Source of the DNA: Escherichia phage vB_EcoP_PW8 | Sequence record: PQ362703.1 | DNA: 64,000 nucleotides | Strand: one strand, 5' to 3' | Shown here: piece after piece, positions 45,131 to 55,507 of the stretch | Position numbering within the stretch: position 1 is the first letter of the stretch | Layout: each line of letters begins with the position of its first letter | Translations under genes and position numbers: made by a program | Notes under the pieces: model-generated | Database searches by the model: none | What the model saw: the letters and a program-made list of their open reading frames with translations, nothing else | What the model was told of the DNA's origin: nothing

Positions 45131-48100
45131 TTAGTTAGTAAGGTTGAGCCACGGGTTCAAGGTATGGGCACGTAAGCCTTGTCCGAAACCGAAGGAGTAA
45201 CCAAGGTTACCCTGTGCAGCAATGCTGAAGATGTTGTCCTGAATAGGCAGACCAACATTACCAAACATAGTAGGAGTTGGAGCCAGCATAGCCATAGCAG
45301 CATGTACTGGGTTATTACGAATCATGGACACTGCAACTTTTGCAGAACGAATCTTAAAGTTGTAGAACCACATCAGACCAACACTTTCCATATACCCACG
45401 GAATCGACCCGGCAGACGGTCGTAGTTAATAAACTCTTCCGTTACACGTCCCAGTGCTTCTTCACGAGTCTTACCTTTACGCTGAGTCAGTTCATCATAG
45501 ATGATTGCTTTAGCAATAAAATCAGAGTACTCAACCGTCTTCTGGATACCCTGGAAGAGAGCAGTATCCTTAGTGATAAGTGCATAACGACCTGCATTAC
45601 GTACAGACTTAGGTAACTTATCAGCCAGCTTTTCCATGTATTCGTGAAGTTTACCTTCAGTAATCAGGATGTCATCGCGACCAATACCAGCATCTGCAAT
45701 TGAAGAGAACTCACCAGCTTCTAACAGAGGCCAGATACTCAAACGCTTATGGCTATCCGTAATGGACTGAATCTCTGCTTTCAGCTTACGAATCTGGTTC
45801 GGGTTAGTAGCTGCACGTAATTCTGCTTCTGCATCTACCTGACGCAGACGAGATTTCAGATACTGGTTAATCTCAGCAGTTTTCTGTGGAATGCTCTTAG
45901 CAATGTTCTTAACAGGTACACCACGAGCAACCATCTGGTAAAGGTTAGCCAGGAAGTTAACAGCAGGTACAACTACCGACTTAACTACAATCAGGGTCTT
46001 AGCTTCTTTAACTAAGTTCTGAACCAGATTCTCACCACCCATTACGTACTTATAAGCACGGTTACCGAATACACCCAGCATAGCTTTCTTAAAGGTATCC
46101 AGTGTTTCTGGGGACCAACGAGAATTGCCAGACCAAGCATCACCAACAGAAGCTGCACGGTAACCCAGTGCATCATTCAGCATGTCACGACGTACCCATA
46201 ACTCACCCGGACCAAACAGACTTTCTGCTTTCTGACGAGTTTCACTGTTCATCAGCTTAAGAGCATCAGCAGTCACTGGGTCCAGTTTAGAACCAAGAAG
46301 GTTAACGTACTGGGACTTATTAGAGGCAGACATCTTAAGGTCGTTCTCATACATGCTATGCAGGTTCTCAATCAGCATATCATTGAAACGTTGTGCCTTA
46401 GCTTCTTCCACCTGACGTCCACGCCATACACCAATTGCACGAGCAAGATGGTTCTCACCCTCAATATGCTTCAGCATGTTAGGGTCAATGGATTGCTCAT
46501 AAGCAACTACATTACCATTGGCATCATATACAGGCAGCAGTGGTTCATTACCACGTTCACCTCGAGCCAGTGCTTTAGTGATACGGTCTACGGAAGGCTT
46601 GTCAGTAATACGACCAGCTACCATGGTCCCCATCGTAAAGCCTGTGCCGAGGTCTACACCACCAGCAGTATTACGGACGTTCTGTAGGATACCTTGTGAG
46701 AATGGGGCCTGTGCCTGTACCGGTGCAAAGTAGTAACTACGTGCTGGGCCACGGTTAGCAGAACTACCCTGATAAGTACCCAGGCGTACATAGGATTTCT
46801 CAATCAAATCAGCAAACTGACTATCTTCAGCAACAATCAGGTTAACACCTTGTTTAGTCTCACTAGGGATATACCCTTTGTACTGGTTCAAGGTTGCACG
46901 GCTATCAGACTTGGCTTTAGCCATTTCATCCTTACGCTGACCAACCAGGTAAGAGGTAGCAAAGTCCATGCCTTCAATTTCAGTCTGAGCCAGTGAAGAT
47001 AGCATCTCACGGTCAGTCTTACCCATTGCTTCCAGTGCATACAGGGTAATCAGTTTATCCAGTTGAGCTACATCTACAACAGAACGTGTAGTCTTACGTT
47101 CACCCAGCAATCGAGAAATTGCTGTAGCATTACGCAGCAGGTTATTACCGACTGTACCGTTAATCATGTACTGAGCCAGTTGCTTAGATTTACGACTAAT
47201 CAGGGGCCAGTTACGTCCTGCTTGCTTCTGCAAATCTGCTTCCAGCTTATTCACTTCACGATCAACAATCTTCTGGTCAGTCAGTAGGTCACGAATTTCA
47301 CCTAAAGACATAGTGTCACGTAGAACGGCTAGGTCAGTTTTACCCATACCGGTATGCATTGCTTTCCACTCTTCATTAGTCAGTCTACGACTGAACTTAG
47401 ATGCGATAGCGGTAGGCAAATGCTCACGGAACTGCTGACGGTCAGCTTGTACCTGTGCGCGTACTGCCTTAATCAAATCGTATACAGAAGCATTGCTCTT
47501 AGTACGACCAACTATGTCATTAACCAGGTCGTGGAAAGGTTGCCATACCTTACCCTGGTTCATTGCAGCCATAACACCCTCGGCTACGATTGAACCATTC
47601 TTCTCTGTAGCAATAGCAGCTACCAGTTGTGCAGCATGAGCAGCACCTTTAACCAATGGGTTCTTGGTATTAGCTGCAACTTCACGAGCACCTTCTAAAG
47701 CACGGGTAGACAATACATCAATAGAATCCACCAGATACTGATTAGCACGGTCAATAGCATTACCGGTAGGGGTAGCAACAGAATCATAGAAGGACTCTGC
47801 ATTAAGACTGGTCTGCATAATTGTCTGAGCTAATGCATCCATACCTTCCTGTACGTTGGTAGCTTTAGTGTCACCTGCTACACGAGCATTCAGACTAGCC
47901 ATTGCAGCAGTACCGATGTTAGTCAGCATTGCGTCAACAGTATTGCCTGATTTCTTATCTGCTTTCATAACAGGAATTTCAGCCAGTACCTTACGTACCT
48001 CTTCACTTACCATTGCCAGACCAACAAAGGTAGGCAGTAAGGAAGAACGACCTTGTGCATCAAACTCAATGTTGTTAGCACCCATGATGGTATCGAACTT

Positions 48101-55507: not shown

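Follow-up and report, generated by a model that had tools for sequence, protein, structure and literature searches.

The locus examined here raises the question of whether a single, very long reading frame on a coliphage genome encodes an intact virion RNA polymerase (vRNAP) of the phage N4 type, and how closely its surroundings follow the N4 system. The window, meaning the whole stretch of DNA that was analyzed, covers 64,000 nt of Escherichia phage vB_EcoP_PW8 (PQ362703.1). A first-pass annotation had described a giant 3,458-aa frame at 45131-55507, with no strand given, and had read it as an N4-like vRNAP with T7-like catalytic motifs in its central region. The gene was located on the minus strand. 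The analysis supports, with a probability of about 0.97, the reading that it encodes a virion-encapsidated single-subunit DNA-dependent RNA polymerase, the gp50 orthologue of a G7C/Bp4/IME11-type Gamaleyavirus coliphage of the Schitoviridae, which would work by an N4-like mechanism.

The ORF list gives one frame of 10.4 kb at 45131..55507 on the minus strand, with 3,458 codons when counted from TTG. At about 3 stops per 64 codons, the probability of a stop-free run of this length is (61/64)^3458, or about e^-166. This indicates that the ORF cannot be a chance open frame. The substitutions relative to the vRNAP gene of phage nithesis were distributed as 107/40/495 over codon positions 1/2/3 of the frame, and the dN/dS of 0.06 indicates strongly purifying selection. 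The single frame stands as first described, while its product is likely to be shorter. The TTG at 55507 is simply the earliest permissible start past the upstream stop. An in-frame ATG is found at 55489, six codons inside the TTG, with AGGAA about 8 nt 5' of it, and the product from this ATG begins with MSTFDRLAGFADS and aligns to residue 1 of N4 gp50 (MSVFDRLAGFADS). Because of this AGGAA and this alignment, the true start is probably the ATG at 55489, and the product would contain 3,452 aa rather than 3,458. Two terminator-like hairpins flank the gene, one on each side (Table 1). Antisense (plus-strand) ORFs within the gene, at 45179-45616, 46358-46687, 52514-52837, 52859-53275 and 54513-54854, were considered as genes and set aside. 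The codon-position bias of the substitutions tracks the minus-strand frame, and fewer sigma-70-like sites occur there than would be expected, 5 against 19.

The protein is a full-length orthologue of N4 gp50. When all PDB chains were searched via phmmer, query residues 1-3451 were aligned with residues 1-3499 of the full-length, 3,500-aa N4 gp50 chain (11GP, 9PNQ, 9PNR) with E = 0 and 5,126 bits. The identity to N4 gp50 was 67.9% overall, with 61% in the N-terminal domain (NTD, aa 1-900), 72% in the polymerase domain and 70% in the C-terminal domain (CTD, aa 2072-3452), and the CTD alignment reaches the last residue of N4 gp50. PHROG 2206, "virion RNA polymerase", spans query residues 25-3451. 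The alignment to the N4 mini-vRNAP, which the first-pass annotation had named as the check, was carried out by phmmer, and residues 1000-2071 match the crystal structures 2PO4, 3C2P and 3Q0A (E = 0, about 1,690 bits). Pfam likewise assigned four N4 vRNAP domains, with E = 2e-100 to 2e-26, all far over their cut-offs. At 3,452 aa, the product falls within the size class of about 3,400-3,500 aa of the N4-type vRNAP family, and its N- and C-terminal domains are homologous to those of N4 in one alignment from end to end. The full-length match and the PHROG assignment confirm the vRNAP identity proposed at first. Only N4 chains were matched in the PDB at E <= 0.01 by phmmer, with no non-N4 relatives. 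No convincing non-vRNAP Pfam family was found at E <= 1, where two matches at chance level, FAM110_N and Nop5, appeared.

When the vRNAP gene was compared by megablast with 50,697 phage records, 85 records were matched, most of them Gamaleyavirus phages of Escherichia. The best records were PD205 and nithesis, with 94% nucleotide identity across 100% of the gene, and the Gamaleyavirus vRNAP genes show 91-94% nucleotide identity over 98-100% of the gene. The annotated vRNAP of nithesis (XRM24130.1) is 97.1% identical to the query at the amino acid level. The flanking genes are alike among the Gamaleyavirus vRNAPs compared, which include those of nithesis, PD205, Bp4, ECBP1, St11Ph5 and IME11 (YP_006990621.1).

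The layout of N4 gp50, with an NTD, a linker, a T7-like polymerase domain and a CTD, is retained from end to end. The NTD of the query contains Gly/Ala-rich hydrophobic segments at aa 123-141, 237-255, 278-296 and 344-362, and keeps the counterpart of the helices that are predicted to span the membrane in N4 (aa 224-274). Insertion into nanodiscs is known for the NTD of N4 (PMC13434306), and the NTD of the query would, by analogy, mediate membrane association and tethering during ejection. The CTD would autoinhibit the polymerase and be needed for encapsidation, as described for N4 (PMC13434306, PMC13492108).

All five catalytic residues of N4 are conserved in the query as R1390, D1525, K1636, Y1644 and D1917, and the flanking sequence is near-identical at each site. 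The N4 mini-vRNAP catalytic positions, R424, D559, K670, Y678 and D951, were checked on the N4 sequence, where the expected residue was present at each, and were then mapped to the query. The T7-like central motifs claimed at first are borne out by these residues, but direct similarity to T7 RNAP was not detected, either in the PDB (E <= 0.01) or in the Pfam (E <= 1) search. The "T7-like" label holds because of the homology to the N4 mini-vRNAP, an enzyme with an established relationship to T7 RNAP (PMC4496689, PMC13492108). The right-hand fold and the motifs T/DxxGR, A, B and C of the single-subunit RNAPs are established for the N4 mini-vRNAP (PMC4496689), and the motif residues are kept in the query. 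In contrast to T7 RNAP, the query enzyme is about four times larger, and as an N4-type enzyme it would be packaged and injected; in N4 a single-stranded DNA hairpin is read, not a duplex promoter.

The residues which read the promoter hairpin in N4 include K114, R119, W129, K268, K849, K850, D901 and R904 in mini-vRNAP numbering (PMC4496689). They are kept in the query as K1081, R1086, W1096, K1235, K1815, K1816, D1867 and R1870. Nine of the ten promoter-contact residues checked are conserved. The sole difference is N4 K267, which is N1234 in the query and is also N in nithesis; K268, next to it, is unchanged. From the conservation of the active-site and promoter-contact residues, a rifampicin-resistant, hairpin-dependent transcription activity would be expected of the enzyme.

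Table 1 Features of the vRNAP gene, its product and the associated N4-type system, in window coordinates.
Feature	Position (nt)	Strand	Query residues	Basis or remark
vRNAP CDS (gp50 homologue)	45131..55489	-	3,452 aa (probable)	stop 45131-45133; ATG with AGGAA, N4 gp50 match, PHROG 2206, dN/dS
N-terminal domain	52748..55489	-	1-914	N4 residues 1-919; limits mapped from N4 (domain limits PMC13492108)
Linker, short form	52535..52747	-	915-985	low-complexity, Pro/Thr/Glu/Lys-rich; between NTD and polymerase domain
Polymerase domain (mini-vRNAP equivalent)	49271..52534	-	986-2073	2PO4/3C2P/3Q0A, four Pfam domains, residue mapping
C-terminal domain	45134..49240	-	2084-3452	N4 residues 2123-3500
Pfam PF21867			1294-1409	
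Pfam PF21624 (plug)			1426-1507	
Pfam PF21894 (helical)			1585-1801	
Pfam PF21769			1883-2027	
Trp stacking on the -11 base	52202-52204	-	W1096	codon
T/DxxGR motif	51320-51322	-	R1390	codon; N4 R424
Motif A	50915-50917	-	D1525	codon; N4 D559
Motif B	50582-50584	-	K1636	codon; N4 K670
Motif B	50558-50560	-	Y1644	codon; N4 Y678
Motif C	49739-49741	-	D1917	codon; N4 D951
Terminator-like GC-rich hairpin, then T-run	55557..55576	-		between gp51 homologue and vRNAP start
Terminator-like 10-bp GC-rich hairpin	45102..45125			directly 3' of vRNAP stop, between convergent gene blocks; consensus match only, strand not assigned
Predicted early promoter, P1 equivalent	8751..8767	+		ACATGC-TCC-GCATGT, then TATGG; upstream of gp1 homologue (8810)
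Predicted early promoter, P2 equivalent	9240..9256	+		AGACGC-TCC-GCGTCT, then AAAGG; upstream of gp2 homologue (9268)
Predicted early promoter, P3 equivalent	12403..12419	+		AGCTGC-TCC-GCAGCT, then TTTGG; upstream of RNAPII gp15 homologue (12453)
gp1 homologue (RNAPII cofactor)	from 8810			tblastn
gp2 homologue (RNAPII cofactor)	from 9268			tblastn
RNAPII subunit, gp15 homologue	12459-13262			tblastn
RNAPII subunit, gp16 homologue	13819-15033			tblastn
DNA polymerase, gp39 homologue	31603-34182			tblastn
N4SSB, gp45 homologue	40304			tblastn
gp51 homologue (ejection protein, vRNAP partner)	55584..57548	-	654 aa	49% identity to N4 gp51, E = 1.7e-174; PHROG 6126, virion structural protein
gp52 homologue (ejection protein)	57561..58004	-	147 aa	59% identity to N4 gp52

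In the promoters of vRNAP, inverted repeats flank a GC-rich heptamer that is centred at -11 (PMC4496689). The coding-strand pattern GCTYCGC with flanking inverted repeats was scanned for in the window and, as a control, in the N4 genome (70 kb). Exactly three sites were found in the window, at 8757, 9246 and 12409, all on the plus strand, centred on GCTCCGC and with 6-bp stems, and they directly precede the homologues of gp1, gp2 and gp15. The control scan of N4 also returned exactly three sites, at 93, 562 and 4551, just before gp1, gp2 and gp15, in agreement with the mapped P1-P3. In first-order Markov simulations of the window, 0.12 sites arose on average, with a maximum of 2. The hairpin promoters are equal to those of N4 in type, number and placement, and they differ in stem length, with 6 bp in the query versus 5, 7 and 7 bp in N4. 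N4 P1 (GTTGC-TTC-GCAAC, then TTATGG) lies at the equivalent relative position, and the core of the P3 equivalent is identical to that of N4 P3, whose stem is 1 bp longer. N4 promoters P1-P4 are mentioned in the literature (PMC13492108); a relaxed scan for 3-nt-loop hairpins gave no further convincing GC-heptamer site as a fourth early promoter in either N4 or the window.

The gene order is also conserved. Synteny with N4 was found by tblastn with N4 proteins for gp1, gp2, gp15, gp16, gp45 and gp50-gp57. The vRNAP gene adjoins the gp51 and gp52 homologues, which lie directly upstream on the same strand in the late/structural module, as its neighbors do in N4. Further upstream on this strand are gp53, gp54, gp55, gp56 (major capsid protein) and the first part of gp57. 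The ejection proteins gp51 and gp52 build the trans-envelope channel for vRNAP in N4 (PMC13434306).

The main length variation of the protein is found in the linkers. The query is 48 aa shorter than N4 gp50, mostly in two linkers, and 132 aa shorter than the nithesis vRNAP, all within the NTD-polymerase linker at about query aa 969-984. At 71 aa, this linker of the query compares with about 88 aa for N4 and about 203 aa for nithesis. As judged by the megablast spans, short genes of about 10,370 nt are found in IME11, AN24P2, 24-32N, PBM-2/3, the UE phages and PGN829.1, and long genes of about 10,730-10,860 nt are found in Bp4, ECBP1, PD38, nithesis and St11Ph5. A deletion or truncation in the query linker was considered and rejected, since the query junction TLTNEDNTQEIAETKTEME matches that of IME11 (ALTNEDTTQEVAETKTEME), and the N4 junction opens alike (NLTNEDN). 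Because the junction is common to the query, IME11 and N4, the long form is read as an insertion in the Bp4/nithesis clade, and the short linker is the common state and probably the ancestral one. The 132-aa module, carried by nithesis and the Bp4-type vRNAPs and lacking in the query, gave no Pfam match. Over most of the gene, the query is nearer to nithesis than to IME11, with Bp4-type flanks (94%), yet its linker junction is of the short IME11/N4 type. The gene is mildly mosaic for this reason, and such mosaicism is ordinary variation inside the genus.

Several GenBank records label the orthologue as a DNA polymerase (PD205, HK2, U1G, PBM-2/3), and this label sits at seven of the megablast matches. 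The chance that the gene encodes a DNA polymerase is nevertheless close to nil: the N4 orthologue has been characterized by experiment as an RNA polymerase whose initiation complexes are solved (PMC4496689), vRNAP domains alone are matched in Pfam and PHROG, and a distinct DNA polymerase, the gp39 homologue, is encoded elsewhere in the window. The labels "DNA polymerase" and "gram positive anchor domain protein" on the orthologue are annotation errors. It is also very improbable that the gene is a decayed copy, either as a pseudogene or as a structural or ejection protein which has lost the polymerase activity and keeps the scaffold only. Nothing supports this directly, and what could be raised in its favor is the shorter length relative to N4 gp50 and to the closest relative. 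However, the 3,452 codons are uninterrupted up to the final aligned residue of N4 gp50, every catalytic residue is intact, the dN/dS is that of a selected gene, and the length gap to nithesis lies wholly in a low-complexity linker whose short form is common to IME11 and N4.

A bona fide vRNAP could still differ from that of N4 in promoter specificity or tethering geometry. The change of K267 to N1234 in the query and in nithesis, the P2-equivalent spacer between hairpin and start site (TAAAGG versus TTTTGG in N4) and the linker of 71 aa speak for such a difference. It is considered unlikely, since the loop (TCC coding, GGA template) and the GC heptamer are conserved, as are the equivalents of their readers K114, R119, W129, D901 and R904. 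In N4 the spacer serves as a ruler whose bases are uncontacted (PMC4496689), and its length is the same here. Any altered specificity or geometry would be a minor quantitative variation, not another mechanism. In a further, rather doubtful possibility, the phage would be an undescribed Gamaleyavirus species whose vRNAP is a natural mosaic of Bp4-type flanks and an IME11/N4 short linker, with the linker length tuning the reach from the membrane tether during genome entry.

With the protein taken as an N4-type vRNAP, its mode of action may be proposed from N4, because of the 68% full-length orthology, the conserved residues and the promoters. Encapsidation, ejection, autoinhibition and hairpin-dependent initiation would all follow N4. 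The capsid would take in a few vRNAP copies, for which the C-terminal domain would be required; in N4 about four copies are packaged, and the packaging needs the CTD (PMC4496689, PMC13434306, PMC13492108). The presence of vRNAP in the virion and its injection have been shown for N4 (PMC13434306), and mass spectrometry has detected vRNAP in virions of KP8, a related phage (PMC6950046). Upon infection, once the receptor is bound, gp52 and gp51 would be expelled first to form a channel, and the vRNAP would then leave through the tail, probably as a beads-on-a-string chain. The NTD would tether the enzyme at the inner membrane and associate with gp51. The plug, the motif B loop and the CTD would keep the polymerase domain autoinhibited until a hairpin promoter, extruded from the negatively supercoiled template strand, is bound. 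In N4, this hairpin step requires the host gyrase and is stabilized by the host SSB (PMC4496689, PMC13434306, PMC13492108). Transcription of the early genes from the three hairpin promoters would help draw the genome in, and the early products gp1, gp2 and RNAPII (gp15/gp16) would then lead to middle transcription.

The taxonomic placement anchored by this gene holds as N4-like and can be sharpened, on sequence grounds, to Schitoviridae, Enquatrovirinae, Gamaleyavirus. One feature listed for the family is a set of three genes for RNA polymerases, among them a vRNAP of about 3,500 aa (PMC7650795), and the window contains the vRNAP together with the gp15 and gp16 homologues. All Schitoviridae core proteins falling within the window (among gp24, gp25, gp39, gp42, gp43, gp44, gp52, gp54, gp56, gp57, gp67, gp68 and others) were found by tblastn; gp59 (portal) falls outside the 64-kb window, and gp44 is present as an insert-split gene. 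The ICTV guideline for a genus is about 70% nucleotide identity over the genome. In a nucleotide comparison to the genus members which covered about 34 kb of the genome, the nearest genomes shared 93-94% identity across about 91% of a 24-kb replication block, and the vRNAP gene was 91-94% identical. The phage thus belongs to Gamaleyavirus and stands close to the species threshold of 95%.

The gp44 (Sak4-like) homologue is cleanly split at N4 residue 109, with the N-part at 38734-39045 and the C-part at 39839-40258. The insert of about 790 bp (~39046-39838) gives two separate matches to RF00028, the Rfam model of group I introns, at 39096-39201 (E = 2.7e-5) and at 39563-39790 (43.9 bits, E = 1.9e-9, under the gathering score of 50). 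It contains a 163-aa ORF at 39181-39672 which matches HNH-endonuclease PHROGs with E = 2.6e-39. The insert probably represents a mobile group I intron harboring an HNH endonuclease ORF. Outside this phage, it is found in just three Gamaleyaviruses (SP5M, PhAPEC7 and RudolfBernhard_Bas96), at 97-99% identity, and in their records the pieces are annotated as separate CDSs.

An exact look-up of the vRNAP protein sequence in a collection of 15 billion proteins returned no entry. With no identical protein in that collection and about 93-94% identity to the closest genomes, the phage is regarded as a new isolate within a genus that is already well known. The vRNAP copy it carries is intact and ordinary, and the gene family, structure and mechanism are already thoroughly known; cryo-EM structures of the full-length vRNAP were published in 2026. 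The value of the finding lies mainly in annotation, without new biology being added: the genus is placed, the start codon is corrected, the three early promoters and the ejection partners are located, and several GenBank "DNA polymerase" labels on the vRNAP orthologue are exposed as wrong. The linker-length polymorphism among vRNAPs that are otherwise nearly identical could provide a natural series on which the 2026 ejection models, beads-on-a-string and membrane-tether, might be tested.

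The Sak4-like gene (N4 gp44 homologue) contains an insert of ~790 bp, which interrupts it at residue 109. The Rfam group I intron model matches two parts of this insert, with E-values of 1.9e-9 and 2.7e-5; the top score, 43.9 bits, does not reach the gathering score of 50. An ORF for an HNH endonuclease lies inside the insert. Elsewhere, the insert was found in only three Gamaleyaviruses, SP5M, PhAPEC7, and Bas96, at 97-99% identity. The pieces of gene and insert are labelled as separate CDSs in these three records, and no intron is annotated. The coordinates of this and the other features are collected in the table.

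Positions of the features in the window and in the compared protein
Feature	Position	Strand	Remark
377-aa ORF resembling N4 gp66 (appendage)	2184-3317	-	compared with N4 gp66
Stretch with five small ORFs (6958-8608)	6300-8760	+	about 2.4 kb
P2-equivalent promoter	9240-9262	+	hairpin and spacer
Sak4-like gene region	38713-40261	+	insert about 39046-39838
HNH-endonuclease ORF	39181-39672	+	163 aa; PHROG 374, E = 2.6e-39
tRNA-Ala (cgc)	42821-42892	+	
tRNA-Ile (aat)	43761-43835	+	
Linker module position	~52540-52585 (window equivalent)		nithesis vRNAP aa ~970-1117

The stretch of small ORFs is bounded by the terminase-side gene (gp69 homologue, end at 6296) and the predicted P1-equivalent early promoter at 8757. 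In N4, the distance between P1 and the left end of the genome is 93 nt. The physical ends of the present genome, with their terminal repeats, are probably placed a short way upstream of 8757, which would make the window a circularly permuted assembly. The P2-equivalent promoter carries TAAAGG as the spacer from the hairpin to the predicted start, whereas N4 P2 and P3 carry TTTTGG of the same length. The spacer bases in N4 make no contact with the enzyme (PMC4496689).

The two tRNA genes are located in an ORF-poor stretch, with the replication module on one side and the convergent gene of the virion RNA polymerase (vRNAP) on the other. tRNAs are also present at the equivalent place in nithesis, the closest annotated relative. 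Swapped receptor-binding modules are typical of G7C-like phages. The likeness of the 377-aa ORF to N4 gp66 is limited to about 89 residues with 30% identity, and this restricted likeness fits such swapping.

A module of 132 aa sits in the linker between the N-terminal domain and the polymerase in the vRNAP of nithesis, PD205, Bp4, ECBP1, St11Ph5, and other closest relatives. It is missing from the vRNAP of the window, IME11, and N4. The module does not appear to be of low complexity, and a Pfam search with it returned no match. Several deposited genomes mislabel the vRNAP orthologue: the name given is "DNA polymerase" or, in a single record, "gram positive anchor domain protein" (mislabelled records: ON922919, PP514361, MZ394712/NC_070872, PV053165, PV029541, PP301343, and JX415535). 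These labels are annotation errors, and they could spread to further annotations.
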